A stretch of 64,000 bases of DNA from Octopus vulgaris (Eukaryota). A program made the translations under genes and the position numbers. The DNA is taken from positions 50,220,001-50,284,000 of the forward strand of contig OX597822.1 in the NCBI GenBank assembly GCA_951406725.2, in the 5' to 3' direction. Shown here piece by piece: positions 3,836 to 57,240 of this stretch. The notes under the pieces are model-generated. The model was not told the DNA's origin, ran no database searches, and was given only the letters and a program-made list of their open reading frames with translations. Position 1 is the first letter of the stretch. The number at the start of each line of letters is the position of its first letter.

Positions 3836-4516
3836 TCATATTAATCAAATTAATATTCAATTTTTCACCCTTATTATATGTGTGTGTGTATTAGCAATTA
3901 GTATAAAATTGCATCAATGACTTGAACTTGAATAAGTGGTTTCACATAAATGGGGATAAATTAAAAAGGTTTGTTGTTATTACTAATACTGTTTGACTAT
4001 TGTAGTCACGTTTGTTGGTTCCTCGTCAGGGAAACGTTGTTGTGTTGCATTTGTTAAATAATTGTAAACCGTAAACCTCCCCCTTTCGGAGAAGGGGCTT
4101 TGGTTATTATTTAAAAATTGAATTGCGTCCCTGATTGAGGAAATTGACAATATTTTCACCGTCTTTACGGAAGCATTTTTGTGAAAATGCCTTCGATAGA
4201 AGAAAGTCCAAAAATGAATTTCGCTGAAATGATCAAACTTTAAACCTTAATAACTTTTTTTTGAAATTTTCTATACAAGAGGGAGGACAAGATCCAATTG
4301 ATCGAAATTGCAAGAGACGGGCCTACAATTCCAGTCTATTATATATTTTGACTATTGTTATCAGTAGCGATATCAAGATATAACTTTGTATTTTGTATTT
4401 TATGTGTAGATGTATATATATAGATGTACATGTAATATGTACACATATATATACACATATATACATGCATAATATATCTACCGATACACACATACGCGCG
4501 CACACACACATACATA

Positions 4517-4652
4517 GGGGCAGGTCTGGCTGTATGGTAACAAAGTACGTTCCAAACACATTGTCCTGGGTTCAGTCCAACTGTGTGGTGTTCTTGGCAT
4601 GTGTCTTCTGCTGTAGCTTCAGACCAACAAAAGCCTTCTCAGTGGATTTTGT
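4517..4652 (+). mobile_element. SINE family B, decayed 5' half
   Basis: Aligns by eye to the head of the young copy at 42004 (GGCAGGTCTGGCTGTATGGTAA...GGGTTCAGTCC...GTGTCTTCTGCTGTAGC). Confidence 0.75.
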
Positions 4653-4794
4653 ACATATATACAGACATACATACATATATATACATGCATACGCACATAT
4701 TCGGCATAAACACTCTACCACTACAACTAATAACTGTTGGGAACACTTTCAAACCTGCCTTACATTCGAACCCGAATCTCAAAAACATTGTCCC

Positions 4795-6399
4795 CTTCAG
4801 CGCCAAGCTCAACTGCTCTATCCTGACATGGAGGGTATCAGCAATGAAATCTATAACAAAACACTCATTGACGTTGAATACAGAATTGCTAAACTGGGTG
4901 GAAATGAATTGTCGACGTATGGCCTGCCACAAGCATTCAGGTCAGGGTCAAATAGCCTTCCCACTGCTGTTATTCGTGAAACAACCTACGACACTCAAGC
5001 GCTTTCAAAGTACATTGTTGAAAATGAGCCTAAATTACTTCCAGACAAGCTGCAGGCTTACAGAACTATTCTTAACAGTGTACGCCAATGCGAGGGACGA
5101 ATCTTCTTTCTCGATGCTCCTGGAGGGACAGGAAAAACATTTATTACAAAGCTTCTCCTTGCAAAAGTTAGGTAGCATCAGGACATTGCAGTAGCTGTAG
5201 CCTCCTCTGGCATTGCAGCTACTTTGTTACCCGGTGGCAGGACAGCACACTCAACTTTTAAACTCCCTCTCAATTTAGCAGCATCCGAAATGCCTTCATG
5301 CAACATCAACAAAAGCTCAGATCAGGGACAAGTACTTAAAATGTGTTATGTAATTGTCTGAGATGAGTGCACTATGGCTCACAGGGGCGCTTTGGAAGCA
5401 TTAGATAGAGCCCTGAAAGACATCCGAGACTGTCAGGCTCCAATGGGTTGTGTAACGCTTCTGTTGTCAGGTGATTTCAGGCAAACTCTTCCTGTCATTC
5501 CGAAAGGCACTAGAGCTGATGAAGTTCAAGCATGTCTAAAGTCCTCTCCCCTGTGGCATCATGTTACAATCTTTAGTCTTACCACTAACATGAGAGCTCA
5601 GCTACACGGTGACAAAATGTCCACAAAGTTTGCACAGGACATTTTGACACTTGGTGAAGGCAAGATGCATCTAGATGCTGCAAAACAAATGGAAGTGTGG
5701 TCATTTTCCTCTGTTGTTAATTCTGTAGATGACCTCAAAAACAAAATCTTTCCCAACTTCACACAAAACTACCAAAATCACAATTGGCTGTGTGAAAGAG
5801 CAATATTAGCTCCAAAAAACGTCGCTGTTAACAAAATTAATCAACAGCTAATGCATTCTCTTCCAGGCACTATATACACTTACAAGTCTGTTGATACAAT
5901 TCCAGATATAAATGAAGTTGTGAACTATCCTCCTGAATTTCTCAATTCACTGGAGCCTCTTCAACTACCTCCACACATATTACCACTTAAAGTTGGAACA
6001 CCTGTAATGCTACTCCGCAATATGGAACCACCAAGACTTTGCAATGGAACACGACTGGCGATAAAGAAAATGATATCACACGTTATCGAGGCGATCATTC
6101 TTTCTGGATGTGGAAAAGGTGATGACGTCTTTATTCCAAGATTTCCTCTTACTCCATCACGAGCAGAAATTCCATTTACATTCAGAAGACTACAATTCCC
6201 CCTTCGTGTCAGCTTTGCCATGTCCATTAACAAATCTCAGGGTCAAACCCTCTCTGTAGCTGGTCTTCTCTTGGAAAAGCCCTGCTTCTCGCATAGGCAA
6301 ATGTATGCTGGCTGCTGAAGAGTAGGAACCAAAAGAAACCTTTTTGTATATGCTCCGCAAGGAAAAACAAGGAACATTGTTTACAACGAGGTGTTATAA
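4795..6399 (+). pseudogene. Helitron RepHel PIF1-family helicase domain (pseudogene, Rep domain absent)
   Basis: Motifs FFLDAPGGTGKTF (Walker A), VAVASSGIAATLLPGGRTAHS, V*DEC, LSGDFRQTLPV, LCNGTRL and QFPLRVSFAMSINKSQGQTL. One reading frame with in-frame stops at 5173, 5359 and 6316; natural stop at 6399. Confidence 0.95.
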
Positions 6400-9416: not shown

Positions 9417-9419
9417 AAA

Positions 9420-10408
9420 GCGTTTCAACAATTGTCTGACAGGTGGGAACAAACATTTTTGCATGCTAAATATGTGGCCCATAGCAAACAAGATCAGAAG
9501 CACACCCATCAGTGCCCTCGAAGCTCGGGAACAAAGGCAGAGCGTGAAGGCTTTATTACAGCTGCTCAAGGTCAGAGCTTAGTTACCAGGAACTAACAAA
9601 CCAATGTAATGAAAAATAGAGTAGACCTAAACTGCTGATACAGCAACGATGAGATTGAAACAGGGGATTACCTAATGTCTGGGTGTAATGTTTTATCACC
9701 TATAGAGTAAGTATCAAAACATGAGAGAGTTGGCCAATATCTCTCTACACTTGATAATATGTCGGCATTATAAAATGAAAACTGCTGACAAATGGTACAG
9801 GCACCACACCGAGGCTGTAACTGAGGGAGAAAATGTAACGATCGTTTGGAGATTTCCAGTATGAACAGACCGGACCATCAAAGCAAATAAACCAGATATT
9901 GTTGTGAAAGAGAAAAATAATAAAATCAGTATATTGATTGACATGAGCATAGCTTGTGATCATAATATCTCGGCAAAAGAGTTTCATAAGCGCAGAAAAT
10001 ATAAAGATGTGCTGATTGAAATCGAAAAAGACGGTTACGACAGCAGTGATTGTAGGAGCACATGGAATGTTCAATATAAAGAACTTAAAATGTTGAGGAT
10101 GGTTGCTGGTTCAGCATCCATGCAGGAAGTCCAAAAGATTGTCTTAACTGCTACGTACTGAGAAGAGCATTTTCGCAGTGAATTTTCTCTCCTTTTCCCC
10201 CTTAATTTTTATTGATTTCTTTTTATCATTATTTTCTTTTTTTATTCTTTCGTTTTGTCATTCTTCCCATTTTTTTTCTAACACATGATATATAACGGAC
10301 TAATCTTGTGTGTTTATTTTAATGATCTGAAAATGCATACAGTGAGTTACTTTGTCCTAGGTGTTAAGAAGACATTCGGCAAGAAATGGAAACAAAATTG
10401 AGAAACGA
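9420..10408 (+). mobile_element. 5'-truncated R4/Dong-like non-LTR retrotransposon (zinc knuckle + restriction-like endonuclease + 3' UTR)
   Basis: Decayed translation EGFITAAQGQSL, DYLMSGC, TDRTIKANKPDIVV...ILIDMSIACDHNISAKE, QEVQKIVL. Same subfamily as 35908-37948. (TAA)n on both sides. Confidence 0.85.
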
Positions 10409-24569: not shown

Positions 24570-24795
24570 TTCTTTTATTCTTTTATTTGTTTCAGTCAAT
24601 TGACTGCGGCCATGCTGGAGCACCACCTTTAGTCGAGCAAATCGCCCCCAGGACTGACACTTTGTAAGCCTAATACTTATTCTATCGGTCTCTTTTGCCG
24701 AACCGATAAGTTACGGGGATGTAAACACACCAGCGATGCTGAGGAACAAACACATACACACAAACACATACATACATACATACATACATACATAC

Positions 24796-24870
<75 letters not shown>

Positions 24871-24980
24871 CGTATATATATATACATATATATATATATA
24901 GAGAGAGAGAGAAGACACGTGCCCAAAATGCCACGCAGTGGTACTGAACCCAGAATCATGTGATTGGTAAGCAAGCTACT
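24570..24980 (-). mobile_element. SINE family B lacking its first ~20 nt, internally deleted
   Basis: Minus strand starts AGTAGCTTGCTTACCAATCACATG...GGGTTCAGTACCACTGCGTGGC. The 3' half is intact at 24570-24760. Confidence 0.9.
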
Positions 24981-25990
24981 TTATTTTTAAAAATTTGCCA
25001 TCAAGGCATGATACAGAGTAGCTTGCTGGTTAGAGAAAGACATTGATGAGCAGAATGATGTTAAGGATGATATTAATGGGAGAAGACAAAAGGCCCCCGC
25101 CGATTTTCTGCTTCTCTAAAACAATATTCTCTTCTTTTCTCAACAGAAAAAGACAAAACAAGGTAATGAACCGCTCACTTCAGTTTTACAAATTTTTAGA
25201 CTAATAGTCCATATACCAAATGGGGGGGGGGGGTAAGCCTCTTAAACACGATAACTTGCAATAAACATTAAACGTTGTAACACTGAGGCTTTTCAACATC
25301 TTGTCAATATTCCTCCCCGACATCGCTTGTGTCCGTATATTCTAGCATTCTCCACCCCTCATTCAAGACCAAGATGGGATCCGAGCCGGCGTCACCCGGC
25401 CACAAGGGATATTCCTAATTGCGTTCCCGCAGCCTATACCCCACAGACACCTTTATGACCTCCACAGCTATCTGCGGAGGCCATTCGGGATCCTGTGTGA
25501 AGGCTAAAGGTACTCCATTATGGTGCCCTTCCACCACCTCTTGTACCTCTCCGCCTCTGTAGAAAAAGAATAATAGTTCCGATTCCTCCGGGATTGAGGT
25601 AGTCAATTTTACCGTTGGCGGCACAGTTCCCCCAACGGTGTCTCTTGACATGTCGGTGGCTCAACCCCTACCGACAAGGATCCGGAATATTCCGTTGCTA
25701 TGTCTCCGACTGCCGGCAATGTCCTATTTCTCCTCGTTTTCCTCTTTTTTCCCTCTCAACGCGTTTCAAAGGTAAAGACAATACGCCACTTCATTTGAAA
25801 CAGTCCTTCCCGCAAAACAAATTAAATAGAACTTGGGATTTTGGTGGAGGGTGAAAACGGACAGGTGAGGACGGTGAGGGCTGTTAAGCCAAGACGATGT
25901 GAGAAATTATGAATGCTGGAAAGACGAGCTATGAGAAGAGACATGTAAAAGCAAGTTTTTATGAAGGAAGTGGAAGAAGAAAATAGATCA
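24981..25990 (-). mobile_element. Unclassified element (copy 1) whose 3' end is fused to the SINE B head; 5' boundary uncertain
   Basis: 24981-25135 aligns with 56689-56850. Ends in an A-rich AAAAATAA on the minus strand. Confidence 0.65.
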
Positions 25991-26769
25991 CCTTTCATAA
26001 CGTATCAAATATGAGAGATTCAAGGAAGAAGAGTGAGAGAGAGAGGGAATGGTGAAAGGGAGAGGAGAAGAATACGGAAAGATTGGGAGAGGATACCAGA
26101 AAGAAAGAAGAACAAGAGAGAGAGACAGAGAAGAGATAAGAGAAGAATGCCCATATCTATATATATATATGTAATTATATATATGGGGACGTAAGTATGC
26201 GTGTATGTGTGCGTGCGTATGTGTGTGTATGTGTAGTGCGCACGCACGCATTTCCGTTATGTGTGTGTGTGTGGTGCTTACTGGTTGAAAGATAATTTGA
26301 TTGATAGATTAATTGATAAGATATAAAACAAGTTAGCTGGAAATTGAAATGAACTAACTTATATTATTTCAATCAGAAAACAATTATATATTAAAAGTAC
26401 ATTTTAAGCATCATATATGTGTCTCCTTTGACATTTCAATGCCAAAAATTAAATATCGCGTCATATAATTCTTACTGGATATCTTGATAAAAATTATGCG
26501 TGAATTACTCCTCGCATAGTCCTGTAGTTATTTAATTAGTCTGCATCTTTATCGTATCTTTCCAGTTAGCACTTTTGCAATATTCATCTAAAAGCATTTA
26601 TTATTTTCTTATCTCACAGACACTCTCACATTCATTTGAGCGGGAATAATATTGATTTTTAACAGAGAGCCGTTGTTGTACATATTTTATGTGTTCCTAC
26701 GGGTGTTCATGAATATTAGTTATCAAAAACTATTTTTATATCATACTTATGAAACGAATGAGAGGAATG

Positions 26770-29339: not shown

Positions 29340-29700
29340 ACCGCAGACTATCTGGGATGGTTTCCTTTTTGTGGAACGTTACTGGTGGTAATGTATGCTG
29401 TGTGGGTGTCCCTTGTGTGCTGTGTGCTTGCTGTATAACCTCCTCTGTTTTACCGTTCTTCCTATTCTATTTTGTAATTTTAGTGGGTGTATTCACCGTT
29501 TTCTTTCTTTCCCTTTTCGATACTTCGGTGACTCTATCCATCTCTGTATCTTCCACACCTTCCTCCTGGGCTCGGGCTGCCGGTACGCCTACTTTGTTCT
29601 TCCTGGTTCTCTGTGGTTTCACTGCTTATCTGGGAGCACTTTATTTTAATGTGCCGTTTTCTCCACAGTGGTAGCAGGTGGGCCTTCTTTACTTTACCAT
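29340..29700 (-). pseudogene. gag-like/LINE ORF1 remnant with CCHC zinc knuckle
   Basis: Minus strand reads RRPTCYHCGENG/(1-nt deletion)HIKIKC = CX2CX4HX4C, followed by E/K/T-rich sequence. Confidence 0.65.
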
Positions 29701-30552: not shown

Positions 30553-31052
<500 letters not shown>

Positions 31053-35907: not shown

Positions 35908-37948
35908 TGAGTTTTTCTTCTTCCTTCAAATTTGCTTCTTTTTCTTGCCGAGTGTTTTCCCGACTCCTATGGCAAAGAAATCCATAGTATACATTGGTAG
36001 GCCATTAAACTAAACTCACTAGTTCGTTCATTTTTTTTTTATAGAAATAAAGTTAAACTAAAATACATGGGTAGTAATAGTTCTCACATCGACAATATCT
36101 CTTCTCAATACGTGTGATGTACCAGTTAAGACAATCTTTTGCACTTCTTGCAGGGATGGTAAGCCAGGGATCATTCTCATATAATTTTCGGTTCCCTTCT
36201 TTATCATCCCTAGTGCTCCTACTATCACTGGTATTGTAACCCCATTTTCTCAATTTCAATGAGCAGGTCTTTATATTTTCTGAGCTTGTCAAATTCTTTC
36301 GCCGAGATATTATGATCACAGGGGATGTTCATGTCGATCAATAAGCAAACTTTATTGTATTGGTCTTTCACAACAATATCCGGTTTATTGGCTTTGATGG
36401 TTCGGTCTGTATGTACTGGAAAGTCCCACAGAATCATTACATTTCCTCCTTCAGTTACAGCTTCAGGGTGGTGATTATACCATTTGTCGGCAGTTTTGAT
36501 ACTGCAATGCCGACTTATTAGCCAGCGTAGATATTGGCCAACTTTGTCATGTCTTAATTTATACTCCACTGGTGCTAAGACTTTACATCCAGAGATTAGG
36601 TGGTCCACTGTTTCAATCATGTCGTTGCAGAATCGGCATTTTGGGTCTGCTCTATTTTTCATCACATTGGCCTGGTAGTTCCGGGTTAATAGGCTTTCAT
36701 CTTGAGCAGCCAGGATGAAACCTTCGCTCTCTGCTTTTAGCCTTGAGCTCCGTAGCCACTGATGGGTTGCTTCTGGTCAACATCAGCTTGTTTGCTACGG
36801 GCGACATATTTGCCGTGCAGATGTTTCTCCTCCCACCTATCAGCCAATTGCTCATGCGCTTTTTTCGTTGCCATTATTTTCACCTTCTTTGCAACAATAG
36901 TTGCCGTACTTCCCTCGGGTTGTTCAGTTTGGGTATCCTGCACGAGATCAATAGCATATTTTTTGCTTTTCTTTATGATAGAATGAAGCTTCTTTCGTCT
37001 CTCGTGATTTTCCACGAGCTTTAGCATCCAGTCATTCGTTATTTCAAGATATTTGGCCAGTCCAATTGTGGTTGTTTTGTAAGCTAGTTCAAATTGGATC
37101 AGGCCTTGACCTCCTTGGGCTCTGGGGAGGTAAAGGCGATCTACGTCTTCCTTTGGGTGGTGCATCATATTAAGACTCAGCAGTTTGGGTATTTTCCTAT
37201 CTATTTTCTTTACTTCACTCATATTCCAGTTCAAAACATTGTAGCTCTAAGTAACAACTGGGACTGCTAATGAATTTATAGCTAACACCTTGTTACGTGC
37301 ATATAGTTCAGATTTCAGGACTGCTCGAACTCTCCTATAACATTCCTTCCTGATCTTCTCTTTCATGCTTGCATGCTGAATACCAGAGCCTTCATTTATC
37401 CCTAAATATTTGTAGGTTTGTTCTTGCTCAAGCTCTCTTATGACTGTGTCAACATCTAACACAACTGAATTTGTGGTCTTCACTTTCCCTTTCTGGAAAG
37501 TGGCCTTGGCAAACTCCTCAAGCCTAAACTCCACCCCAATGTCATCACTGAATGCTTTCACAGTGCGCAATAGGTCTTCAAGTTCATTATCGTCTTTACC
37601 ATAGAGTTTTAATTCATCCATATAAAATAGATGGCTTATTTTTTTATTGACAATTTTATACCCATACCCCATTCTGTTCAATTCACTTGTAAGGGGTATT
37701 AGGCCTATGCAGAATATTAGAGGTGAAAGTAAGTCACCTTGAAAAATGCCACAGTTGATGTTTATATTCTCTCAGGCAAGTACTCCGTTAGAGTGGTATA
37801 ACTGGAGATTCGTATTCCACAACGACATATTATACTTCAGGAAGCTTGAAATCACGGGTGAAATTTTGAAGATGTCCAGCGATTTCAAGATCCATAAATG
37901 CGGTATACGGTCGAAGGCCTTTTTATAGTCAATCCATGCGGAGCTGAG
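35908..37948 (-). mobile_element. 5'-truncated R4/Dong-like retrotransposon: RT, CCHC and RLE domains, frameshifted
   Basis: AWIDYKKAFDRIPH, GIFQGDLLSPL, HLFYMDELKLY, YKYLGI, CRFCNDMIETVDHLISGC, KPDIVV...LLIDMNIP. (TTA)n on both flanks. Confidence 0.93.
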
Positions 37949-40755: not shown

Positions 40756-41789
40756 ATACACGCACTCACATACGCATACATATGTATACACATATACACT
40801 AACACTTATAATACATGTGTGTATGCGCGTGTGTTTGTGTGCGTGAGTATGTACGTGTACACATATATACATAACACATACGGACCAAAACCACTTTTTA
40901 CCTCTCTTCCAATCATTCATTGAGAATCTTCAATGATATGCATAATAGCTTTACTTGTTGGATTGTCTATATGTGTGTAAGAATATTCATGTATATGTAC
41001 ATATTTTCATGGTGGGGAGGGAACAAAGCCAGAAATTTCCTCGCTCGCAAATGTGCACGTACACATACATACAGACACATCTACACATGCCCATACACAC
41101 ACACCGGCACACACACTCACACACATGCATATAAAGTCAGAGTACATGAGGGTGTAAGGTAGTGGGGGAATATGTAAAGTAGAATAATTTTTCAGTAATT
41201 TACTATATACGTCAACCGTGTCGCGTCTTGTGTAAATCCATTATGATATTGAGATCGTCAAGAAATTTCTTAGTACATAAAATTATATATTATTATAAAT
41301 AATGGATACTTCATATTCGTCTTTGCTAGAATTGCTAAGTGGTGCAGGAGTTTAGTGAAAACAGTTTTCACTTATAAGCAATGCGTGCCTAGAGCAACGC
41401 AAAGATATATAGTCACACAAACACACGTTTTGTACACGAATTTACATTCGAATTATCACTTCTTAAATATACAATCTAATGCATTAGAACTATTATCGTA
41501 AGACTTACGATTGTTTCCACATTTCTGTTCATTTTTTATAGAAATCTTAGCAACTATCATTATCCATATTTTCTGAGCTTGTCTACATGCACTCACACAT
41601 CACACATACAATGACACATACAAATCTAACCTTCACGCACGCATGCACACACACACACACACTCACACACACATATGTATGTATGCATGTATATATATAT
41701 AAATTACATACAAAATATTACATTCCTTCATAGATTGTCAAAAACTTTTGCGATACAATGATAAGAAGTACAATGAACAACAGCATTTT

Positions 41790-41968: not shown

Positions 41969-42003
<35 letters not shown>

Positions 42004-42005
<2 letters not shown>

Positions 42006-42417
42006 CGCAGGAGTAGCTGTGGTAAGTAGCTTGCTAACCAACCACATGGTTCCGGGTTCAGTCTCACTGCGTGGTATCTTGGGCAAGTATCTTCTGCTAT
42101 AGCCCCGGGCCGACCAATGCCTTGCCTTGTGAGTGGATTTGGTAGACGGAAACTGAAATAAGCCTGTCGTATATATGTATATATATATGTGTGTGTTTGT
42201 GTTTGTGTGTCTGTGTTTGTCCCCCTAGCATTGCTTGACAACCTATGCTGGTGTGTTTACGTCCCCGTCACTCAGCGGTTCGGCAAAAAGAGACCGATAG
42301 AATAAGTACTGGGCTTACAAAGAATAAGTCCCGGGGTCGATTTGCTCGACTAAAGGCGGTGCTCCAGCATGGCCGGAGTCAAATGACTGAAACAAGTAAA
42401 AGAGTAAAGAGTAAAGA

Positions 42418-42458: not shown

Positions 42459-43479
42459 TGCAAATGCACTAATAGCCACGAACTGATACGCGCATGACAT
42501 ATCCATTTCCATTTTGCATAATATTTGAAGAGAAAAGAACAAGGCTCCAGTGTTTGTAGACATAGAGAGGTTTTCCTAGAAACTTAAATCACTTCCGTTG
42601 TTTTATTGTTCCTACGTTATTCTAAAATAAGAAAGCATCGTTCTGATATCACGCATGAGATATATAAATTTCTCTACTTTTTGCCACTTGCTCGTACTTC
42701 AGCTTTGAGATGCGTTAATTATTTACGCAACCTTTCCTTTATACCTCCCACGTCACTGCATATGATCCTCGTTCTTTCACAATATTACATTCGCATATAT
42801 TTTGAATGTTTTCGGAACCACTTACTATTTTTTTTTTTTTTTTGCTGAGCTGTTGTTCATTGTACCTCTTATCATTGTATCGCAAACTTTTTTGACAATC
42901 TATGAAGGAATGTACTAGTTTGTATGTAATTTATTTGGAATATTGCCTGTCCTCCTGATATTCCCTATATTCTCATATATCTTGCCCCGCAATTGGCGTA
43001 CTGATATTCATTTTAAATAATCTGCATATATCTTATATCTTGTACTTAGAACATTTCCAACAAATGCGATTACTTGTTCGACAAATGTCATTATTTTACT
43101 CTCAGTTTTTTAAAAATCATTAATTGAATACTACGACGTAGGCACAGTAACCTTTTATGTATCAAAATAAAATTACTCTTCATCTTCCGGATAATTTCAG
43201 ACATAACTTTCTAATATCGATTTTTAAAGTACATTTTATATTCTTTCTACGATGCAATTTTCTGATTTCGTTTTGATCTAAGATCTCAAAATTATCACAC
43301 TTTTTACTCAAATGACAGTCATGTTTGATTAGTATCACTTGAGAGTTCAACAAAATTCTTTAAATTATATCCTCCGTTATTTTGTGCGCTGCGTCTAAAA
43401 TTTACCGAGGACAGCGATTGAGAACTCTCGTACGAATTTCTGTACTCAATGAACTGCAGGCCTTTTGCCGTCATTTGTT

Positions 43480-54384: not shown

Positions 54385-55625
54385 AAACTATACATGCAGG
54401 TTCAAGGTGCAGTCATTGGTGTAGGTATAGCTGGAGATGTGGCTGGCTTCTTCATGACCTGGTGGGACAGAAAATCTAAACAAATGTTAGCAGAACAGTC
54501 CACAACTACTCTAAAGTAGATATGTAGATGATATTAATATCATAGTTAGGACCAATTCTAGGGACGGCAATGTAGAAACTGAGAAAAATGTAATGTAGAG
54601 CATCCAGCAAATAGCTAACTCCATCCACCAAAGTATCAAGGTAACTATAGATTACCCCACTAAGCACCCCAACAATAGACTCCCTGTACTTGATATTGCA
54701 CTTTGGTTAGAGATTGTGAACAATATAGTGCAGCTCCTCCACTCTTATTACATGAAACCCATAACTTCAAAATATGTTGTTCACTAGAACTCAGTTTTGC
54801 CACACAACATGCAAATTAACATATTGATAGCAGACTTAGTCAGAATAATGAACAATGTGTCCCCACTATGCGAACCCTATGAAAAGAAAAACATATATAT
54901 TGAACTTCATGCACCGCATGCAGTTCTCTGGATGTGATCAGAAAGATAGGGTTCCAGTATACATGGGGGCTAGAAAGAAATTAGACAACATTATACGTAA
55001 TGATATCAGTTCTACCTGCCATAGATATAGAAATAAAGAATGGAATAGGATACAAGGAACTTGTGACAAAGCAAACAGGGGGAACACGTGGTATATAATC
55101 GACAAATATCAAGAAGTGATGTTTGTAGAGGCCACAGCCCATAGCAAACTAGCCCGTAGATTTAGAAAAGCTCTGAAGGAGACCAAACTCAACATTAAGA
55201 TTGTTGAAAAGCCAGGGAACTCTGTCAGATCACAACTATGTAGGACGTACCCCTTTGAGAATACCATATGCACCAATGATAATTGCATTGTATGTAGGAT
55301 TAGCCCTGGCATTAACCGTAGAACTCGAAATGTAGTTTACAGCATAAGATGCATAGAAGGTGCTTGTAAAGACATGAACATGACGTACATATTGGAGACA
55401 TCTAGGAGCATTGCAGAACGAATAAATTACCATCTGAGACAATATGACGATAAAAAACAATCCTACATACTCTACCAACATGCCGAAGACCACCATGGAG
55501 GCAACTTCGGTCAACTTGACATCCGCATCTTATCCAAGCACCCAAAAGACCCAACACTCAGACAAATACGGGAGTACGTCCTTATAAATGAAACCTCCCC
55601 AATACTAAATAGGAAACATACATAG
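54385..55625 (+). pseudogene. Penelope-like element, different lineage: RT core, thumb, Cys-rich linker and GIY-YIG endonuclease
   Basis: YMQVQGAVIG, RYVDDINI (54518-54541), IDYPTKHPNNRLPVLD, YMKP. The 54855-55625 ORF has C....C..C, NVVYSIRC...YILETSRSIAER and RQIRE. Confidence 0.9.
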
Positions 55626-56308: not shown

Positions 56309-56487
56309 GCGCACAAACAAACAAAAAGGAACGAAGTGTAAATAACGGACAGAGTCAAGACTATTGAAAGAGTTGTAAGACGCAACGAAAATTTTAGGAA
56401 AATAAAAATATGAAATAAATGGAAATTTTACCGGTGAGTGTGTTATATTAAGGCACAAAAAGAAACTGACTCTTCCCAGACACAACA

Positions 56488-56549
<62 letters not shown>

Positions 56550-56551
<2 letters not shown>

Positions 56552-56688
56552 GACGGGCTCTTTTCAGTTTCCCTCAACCAAATCCACTTAAAATCTTTGG
56601 TGGGCCCGAGGCTACAGTAGAAGGCATTTGCCTTAGTGCAACTCAGTGGAACTGAATCTGGAAGCATGTGGTCAATAAGCAAACTACC
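56550..56688 (-). mobile_element. SINE family B 5' half lacking its first ~20 nt
   Basis: Minus strand: GGTAGTTTGCTTATTGACCACATGCTTCCAGATTCAGTTCCACTG...GCCTCGGGCC...GGAAACTGAAAAGAGCCCGTCG. Confidence 0.85.
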
Positions 56689-57240
56689 TTATTTCATAAA
56701 ATTTGCCCTGACAGCATTACAAAGAGTAGCTTGAGGGCTGGACTGAAACATTAATGAGATGAATGGTGAAAAAAAGATGAAAAAGGATATTGATGGGAGA
56801 AGACAAAAACCGCCCGCCGATTTTTTGCTTCTCTAATACACTATTCTTTTTAAAAAAAGAAATTGAGATATTAAACCTCTTACTTTCCTTTATTACTTTT
56901 GTCTATCTACAAGAAAGAACACACAAAACTGAGACACCAAGTCTCTTCAACCTGTAAATTTTCTAGCCACCTGCTGGTAAATCCTGCAGCTGCAATCCGG
57001 GTCTCGAAAATAGATAATTGTAATATTCTAATACTTCAAAAACCCAGTTCCTTTCTCTCCCCACCAAGCTTTCTCTTTCTCTTCGATTCTTTTTATTGTG
57101 TTGCCTCTCTCTAGTTCTTTCTCACCTTTTCTCAGAGGGCAACCATGTTTATTTTGACCAGGACAGTTTGTAATGTAGCGTATATCATGCTATAAACTCC
57201 TGTTGGATTACTGTACCGTCCGAGCATGAAGATTATAGTT
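56689..57240 (-). mobile_element. Unclassified element (copy 2) whose 3' end is fused to the SINE B head; 5' boundary uncertain
   Basis: 56689-56850 aligns with 24981-25135 (e.g. ATGGGAGAAGACAAAA, CCCGCCGATTTT.TGCTTCTCTAA, AGAGTAGCTTG). Confidence 0.65.

Follow-up and report, generated by a model that had tools for sequence, protein, structure and literature searches.

A multicopy element joined to the tRNA-like head of a SINE carries an inverted copy of the junction sequence

In the window analysed here, a 64-kb stretch of repeat-rich animal DNA, two copies of a multicopy element are joined to the tRNA-like head of a SINE at one and the same SINE position, and in copy 1 an exact 11-bp inverted repeat lies across the junction, with one arm in the SINE and the other inside the element. 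With about even confidence, these features are explained by a sequence-specific LINE-like retrotransposon that has inserted repeatedly in the SINE head, the 11-mer near its predicted 3' end being an inverted copy derived from the target. The designation 'LINE-like' is based on polarity and a modestly supported reading frame, because neither a reverse transcriptase (RT) nor an endonuclease or transposase was found. The features are listed in Table 1.

Table 1. Coordinates of the SINE parts, the element copies and the predicted structures in the window
Feature	Position	Strand	Remarks
SINE arm of inverted repeat	24970-24980	.	SINE nt 23-33, numbered on the intact copy
Element arm of inverted repeat	25017-25027	.	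minus-strand RNA complementary to SINE-sense sequence
SINE head and core, copy 1	24910-24981	-	88.9% over 72 nt to intact copy 30854-30925; 7-head alignment
SINE tail, copy 1, past (TA)n tract	24584-24734	-	87.5% to 30553-30703
SINE head and core, copy 2	56546-56689	-	79% to 30780-30923; SINE match runs to 56687
Candidate displaced 5' piece of SINE head	26608-26625	-	15/18 match; no adjoining SINE body
Multicopy element, copy 1	24982-25960, far boundary approximate	-	contigs tile the stretch in 4/4 runs
Element end, copy 2	56690-56850	-	74% to 24982-25133; motif core 56725-56733
Probable coding remnant	25307-25627	-	ends about 320 nt before the junction; one stop
Predicted 4-bp hairpin in the 36-nt spacer	24996-25008	-	stem common to both copies, loop differs
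Predicted larger hairpin, best-conserved block of the element end	25080-25116	-	identical runs of 16, 12 and 11 nt

The junction and its inverted repeat

An earlier note on this DNA claimed that the SINE bases at the junction are the exact reverse complement of a sequence inside the element, and this is borne out, with a spacer of 36 nt between the two arms. Since the match to the SINE stops at 24981, the element arm sits 35-36 nt inside the element, which holds no second copy of the motif. When the seven SINE stretches of the window are masked, the remainder of the 64 kb shares no 11-mer with the SINE head and core apart from the element arm.

When the last 30 bases of the SINE were compared with the first 100 of the element, none of 5000 dinucleotide shuffles gave an inverted match of 11 nt, and 4 of 5000 gave a match in either orientation. 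The inverted match occurred in 2 of 5000 shuffles when the 30 SINE bases were set against the first 200 element bases, and in 57 of 5000 for 72 SINE and 969 element bases, all three windows (30 × 100, 30 × 200 and 72 × 969 nt) having been picked post hoc with the match already known. The 11-bp inverted repeat near the junction is thus unlikely by chance. The motif was also considered as an inverted piece of the first 21 nt of the SINE, and this was rejected, as the match (13/18) is weaker than the exact 11-mer.

The SINE is a multicopy repeat with a tRNA-like head, present as seven stretches in the window. tRNA-derived CORE-SINEs consist of a tRNA-like head, a CORE domain and a LINE-derived tail, and we take the present SINE to resemble the tRNA-derived CORE-SINEs of octopus. 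The octopus SINE OR2 is listed among the CORE SINEs in the accessible part of PMC4758252. ARAGORN predicted no tRNA gene, and the SINE pattern was found in none of the viral and none of the prokaryote genomes searched.

The SINE of copy 1 begins inside the tRNA-like head, so that about 21 nt of the 5' end are absent at the junction. Copy 2 meets the SINE at the identical position; the junction is therefore constant at one target position in both of the window copies. Against the majority of three free copies, the SINE parts differ in 21 columns, of which only one is common to both copies, and their divergence from the intact copy is unequal (8/70 in copy 1 and 16/69 in copy 2). The SINE tail lies nearby in copy 1 only. 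Beside copy 2, the sequence past the (TA)n tract (56340-56545) is without it, which may reflect either another SINE subfamily or a later insertion.

A possible remnant of the missing 5' end was found beyond copy 1. Among matches to an 18-nt probe of the SINE head with at most three mismatches, 26608-26625 is the only one free of a SINE body. It ends at the break, lies on the expected strand 1.6 kb from the junction and about 650 nt past the sequence covered by the family, and overlaps the SINE body by 2-3 nt. The match is weak and was identified post hoc, and shuffled probes match the 5-kb stretch around it in 0.65% of 2000 trials. Copy 1 may have its far end here. Past copy 2, on the plus strand, no remnant of the SINE head was found with five mismatches allowed.

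The element family and its reading direction

The evidence for the family consists of the two window copies and of contigs at 80% likeness from four public runs, which bear three organism labels. Between 24959 and 25749 the stretch is tiled by contig records that carry 23-38 other letters, and the family letters listed reach as far as 25903. Because such divergent contigs tile the stretch, the element is multicopy, and copy 1 contains about 1 kb of it. Contig cover drops after about 25950 and is almost absent at 25984-26010. At 25030, 25035 and 25052 the family letter is that of copy 2. Among the 24 runs listed, ten, from six studies, contain part of the element stretch, and no RNA run is among those listed as containing it.

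At 24988, 7 nt inside the element, 45-61 contigs per run carry one common family letter. The summed depth there (5,155-51,844) is about ten times the depth at 25030 and about 550-1,100 times the value for near-identical records from a single locus (9.4-60.3), depth being no copy number. The tenfold depth relative to 25030 suggests that most of this depth is anchored on the SINE side. One contig of run X5 bridges the two parts, with 33 or more letters in the SINE and 36 or more in the element, on either side of an unassigned stretch (joint 24984->25063). Five of the records listed start at 24959-24973, with fewer than 31 SINE-side letters, which is below the bridging rule. Per run, 257-403 records have an intact SINE head as a loose end at 24981. 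It appears that the SINE junction recurs across the family. In one record (X4 record 18), 193 unlike letters precede a match that begins at 24980. This is an element end with another flank, the pattern that independent insertions would give, but a diverged SINE or rearrangement at a later time could also account for it.

Copy 2 has about 160 nt in common with copy 1, and past 56850 no significant similarity between them was detected (score 30, against as much as 41 in shuffles). As several contigs pick up again after 25133-25139, divergence of copy 2, rather than truncation, is possible. No target-site duplication was established, the outer ends of both copies being undefined. The element patterns had no match in metagenomes, and 66 viral loci that share a 16-mer with the element were set aside as chance, since in no case did the match run past 31 nt. 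None of six motifs, the SINE motif among them, was matched in seven of the eight supplementary files of PMC9115989, a search that should be regarded as insensitive because the SINE motif itself was also missed.

The element is likely to read on the minus strand, in the same sense as the SINE, since this order gives a coding remnant, a 3' UTR of about 320 nt and an A-rich end; the constant A-rich end behind the coding remnant would fit the 3' end of a LINE. Nineteen of the family-letter rows listed fall within the remnant, of which, as read by eye, none adds a stop and one lies inside the single stop, and these rows give modest support to a coding frame. An inverted repeat of 14 bp with a 1-nt spacer (86%) occurs within the remnant at 25611-25639.

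Pfam yielded no credible family for nine frames of the element (TMEM33 was below the cut-off, E = 0.017) or for two read-through frames, and homologue searches with the element frames scored 0/253, 0/26 and 0/447 candidates. The sole match in a search of 1.84 billion proteins, a tandem immunoglobulin-domain protein, was spurious, being the sum of seven weak stretches. No usable match to an 81-aa frame was found in the ESM Atlas, and a single-sequence protein fold had a mean pLDDT of 32.8, too low for use. Neither an RT nor an APE or RLE endonuclease was detected in the degraded frames of 24981-26100, and the short degraded frames, from the roughly 1 kb of the element that is present, gave no Pfam or homologue match to a DDE transposase. 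Rfam returned no match at the gathering score, a lone microRNA-model match on a hairpin (E = 1.8) being attributed to chance. An HDV-like or hammerhead ribozyme was considered and set aside, having no Rfam support and no core visible by eye, with the reservation that degraded copies can be missed. Helitron or Helentron ends were likewise rejected: the arms are 36 nt apart and one of them lies within the SINE.

Conservation and folding of the motif

The earlier note described a block that is identical in copy 2 while its neighbours have diverged. The identity itself stands (56723-56733 equals 25015-25025), but the block and the motif are 2 nt out of register. Special conservation of the 11-mer relative to its flanks was not found, as copy 2 keeps 9 of its 11 letters, which is the element average; the note itself had named this outcome among those that would count against its idea. 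In this one pair of copies, the element ends (24982-25133 and 56690-56850) are about 74-77.6% identical, with 118 of 152 columns identical, and at least 9 of 11 letters agree in 72 of the 142 eleven-nt windows. At 118/152 identity, an identical run of at least 11 nt is expected somewhere in the element end with p = 0.91, and the identical runs of 16 and 12 nt lie away from the motif. No row with another letter inside the motif is found among the 40 of 319 rows listed, which says little, because only six of these rows fall in the first 160 nt.

The SINE arm of copy 2 differs from that of copy 1 by two changes. The consensus fold of the two sequences retains a 9-bp stem, including two G-U pairs; the hairpin of the inverted repeat is absent when copy 2 is folded by itself. 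None of the 26 predicted pairs of the two-copy consensus fold shows a compensatory change, and the folds of the whole region are unexceptional (z about -1.7 and -1.6). The larger hairpin of Table 1 (about 56796-56833 in copy 2) contains the longest identical runs between the copies. It is without compensatory change in the two copies, and it is a better candidate for a conserved 3'-end signal, as predicted by folding, than the 11-mer.

The earlier note also proposed that the element RNA could pair with SINE RNA or with the SINE-sense DNA strand where the fusion occurs. This is so for the motif itself, whose 11-bp RNA duplex with SINE-sense sequence has a computed energy of -16.6 kcal/mol, but not for any sequence past it. 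Extended antisense pairing to the whole SINE head was rejected, as 597-1081 of 2000 spacer shuffles pair equally well. A fold-back of the motif onto read-through SINE RNA in copy 1 has a computed energy of -20.2 kcal/mol. The target of the motif is partly paired inside the SINE RNA, with an unpaired probability of 0.06-0.63.

Proposed insertion into the SINE head and its alternatives

If the element inserts site-specifically, a protein of the element would nick the SINE head, and reverse transcription would be primed from the plus strand, whose end reads ...GCAAGCTACTT, while the first ~21 nt of the SINE would be moved to the far end of the insertion or deleted. On minus-strand RNA the element arm has the same letters as this plus-strand end, and it cannot, therefore, anneal to the primer strand. 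It might instead pair with the SINE-sense DNA strand, form a fold-back with SINE RNA produced by read-through, or serve as a copy of the target site to which a protein binds. Pairing-guided targeting by the 11-mer is possible. In its boldest form, the 11-mer of the 3' UTR would be a built-in guide that invades the SINE head, pairs with the non-primer strand beside the nick, and displaces and hands over the primer end, a proposal to which we assign a low probability. It is somewhat likelier that the 11-mer is an inherited relic of an early insertion than a selected guide, as its conservation does not exceed that of the flanks.

The constant junction may also be explained without any target specificity, if a single ancestral fusion of the element with a headless SINE had been copied as a unit, for example via the 3' tail of the SINE, with the 11-mer as a functionless scar (for example, of a snap-back duplication). 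This is rather unlikely, yet it deserves more weight than the other alternatives. It is consistent with the ordinary conservation of the motif, with the lack of a SINE head past copy 2, and with the similar divergence of the SINE and element parts of copy 2 (both about 22-26%). It is opposed by the absence of the SINE tail beside copy 2, by the one element end with an unlike flank, and by the candidate orphan head beyond copy 1. That only one SINE difference is shared by the two copies is also against it, although weakly, as a consensus-like master would leave few such differences. Taken together, the few shared SINE differences, the unequal divergence, the tail at copy 1 only, the unlike flank and the candidate orphan head favour independent insertions, but weakly. 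A simple coincidence, in which the inverted match is fortuitous and the element targets or neighbours the SINE for other reasons, is very improbable: the search space was defined post hoc, the match recurs in 57/5000 shuffles over the whole element and its conservation is not above the background, but within 100-200 nt of the junction it recurs in only 0-2 of 5000 shuffles, and the only stray SINE 11-mer of the 64 kb sits 36 nt from its partner.

The mechanism preferred in the earlier note, in which the 11-mer anneals element RNA to SINE RNA and recurrent jumps take an RT from the SINE that it is copying to the element 3' end, is improbable in our view, and repeated site-specific insertion is favoured over it. 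The duplex is energetically feasible, one of its ends coincides with the fusion point, and the two parts probably have the same sense, as in template-switch chimeras (PMC11838501, accessible part). However, the RT would reach the duplex at SINE nt 33, the end far from the fusion at nt 22/23, and would have to strip all 11 bp before nt 22/23, so that the tether would be gone when needed. The target is, moreover, partly paired in the SINE RNA, pairing does not extend beyond the motif, and in the U6/LINE-1 chimeras the LINE forms the 3' part, the opposite order (PMC11838501). The loss of the SINE head, which the jump was supposed to account for, may instead be a displacement, if the candidate orphan head is genuine. 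There is a similarly small probability that the element is a Dada-like target-specific DNA transposon, the transposase of which binds one motif that is present both at the element's end and within the tRNA-like target. Dada elements hit tRNA genes and bear sub-terminal inverted copies of target motifs, and the arms of Dada-U6 are about 32 nt apart in the printed junctions, near the 36 nt seen here (PMC3706591, accessible part). Against this, the 6-7 bp duplication was not found, the short degraded frames lack transposase similarity, the motif has no second copy inside the element, and the cut lies around SINE nt 22, outside the tRNA nt 8-13 and anticodon-arm sites of Dada.

Site-specific insertion in the SINE head may be compared with several known systems, described here from the accessible parts of the papers cited. 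The earlier note knew of no described case of the arrangement; comparable ones are in print, namely the sub-terminal inverted target motif of Dada (PMC3706591) and the P1 stem of the R2 ribozyme (PMC3774820). Dada's sub-terminal inverted repeats contain a motif also present in the U6/U1 target; the authors speculated that it takes part in recognising the target, so that the idea of an inverted target motif is already theirs (PMC3706591). Dada resembles the present element in its fixed insertion site in tRNA- or snRNA-type sequence and in a similar spacing of the arms (PMC3706591, PMC8869645). It differs in that its motifs occur at both ends, symmetric about the 6-7 bp duplication, whereas here one arm abuts the junction: instead of being equidistant from the insertion, the SINE arm lies at 0-1 nt and the element arm at 35-36 nt. 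Dada also encodes a DDE transposase with a C/DxxH motif and zinc fingers, and the target here is a SINE head.

Among the LINEs, Tx1 families insert at fixed places in other repeats, for example the crocodilian Tx1-Mar in Mariner-N4 (PMC4494074). The likeness lies in a family residing at a fixed place in a high-copy repeat, with insertion in the same direction also occurring; the differences are that the accessible part of that paper describes no antisense copy of the target, and that the target here is a tRNA-derived SINE head. L1-Tx1 and Dong-R4 families are given as recently active in Octopus vulgaris (PMC13282606). In R2, the ribozyme's P1 stem pairs element sequence with the flanking 28S sequence, and target-derived sequence can turn into a heritable part of the R2 end (PMC3774820); target-site duplications contribute to the P1 stem of a twister ribozyme (PMC8501958). 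R2 is thus alike in that the element pairs with co-transcribed target, and its RNA is expected to read through at the 3' end (PMC3774820, PMC12222951). In contrast, the antisense pairing of R2 is at the 5' end, in an HDV-like ribozyme of which Rfam found none here, and the 3' homology of R2 pairs with the nicked primer strand, a polarity opposite to that of the present motif (PMC12222951). SART1Bm and R1Bm have short target-related motifs in the 3' UTR that were proposed to anneal to the target, but these have the sense of the target, with the bottom (primer) strand as their partner, while the motif here is antisense (PMC7265360). The U6/LINE-1 chimeras also consist of two same-sense parts recurrently joined, but with the LINE, and not the SINE as here, as the 3' part, and no antisense tether is described for them in the accessible part of PMC11838501.

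If repeated insertion in the SINE head is the correct reading, a high-copy SINE would give a sequence-specific element a safe place to land, and the SINE head would join the known targets of such elements (rRNA, snRNA and tRNA genes, microsatellites and DNA transposons). No report of an element that targets a SINE head and bears an antisense 3' motif was found in a literature search that left Repbase and most subscription journals outside, and the family could already be listed in Repbase. Target recognition by pairing with the non-primer strand is undescribed for LINEs in the accessible parts of the literature searched. If the motif is functional, the new feature would be its capacity, within a 3' UTR, to pair with the target's non-primer strand, and this would be of interest for site-specific insertion tools. 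If, further, the 11-mer is a guide, it would represent RNA-assisted target recognition in a eukaryotic LINE, aimed at a SINE and reprogrammable via 11 letters; if it is a relic, the finding would be a modest note on the acquisition of target sequence by element ends.

The window contains several other repeats. Broken frames of a PIF1-type helicase, which we take to be Helitron-like, occupy 4384-6318. Two decayed RT-bearing LINE copies (36084-37771 and 9417-10401), 76% alike, lie beside long (TAA)n tracts and presumably resemble the microsatellite-targeting Dong/R4 elements. A minus-strand zinc-knuckle-like remnant at 29640-29700, frameshifted as judged by eye, may represent ORF1 of another LINE. 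A 257-aa frame (54852-55625), about 1 kb away from copy 2, has a weak, Penelope-like GIY-YIG match (E = 0.003, below the cut-off). Finally, 84-nt inverted repeats (41701-41784 and 42849-42932, 94%) surround the SINE copy at 42001-42398, forming a MITE-like element that contains a SINE.
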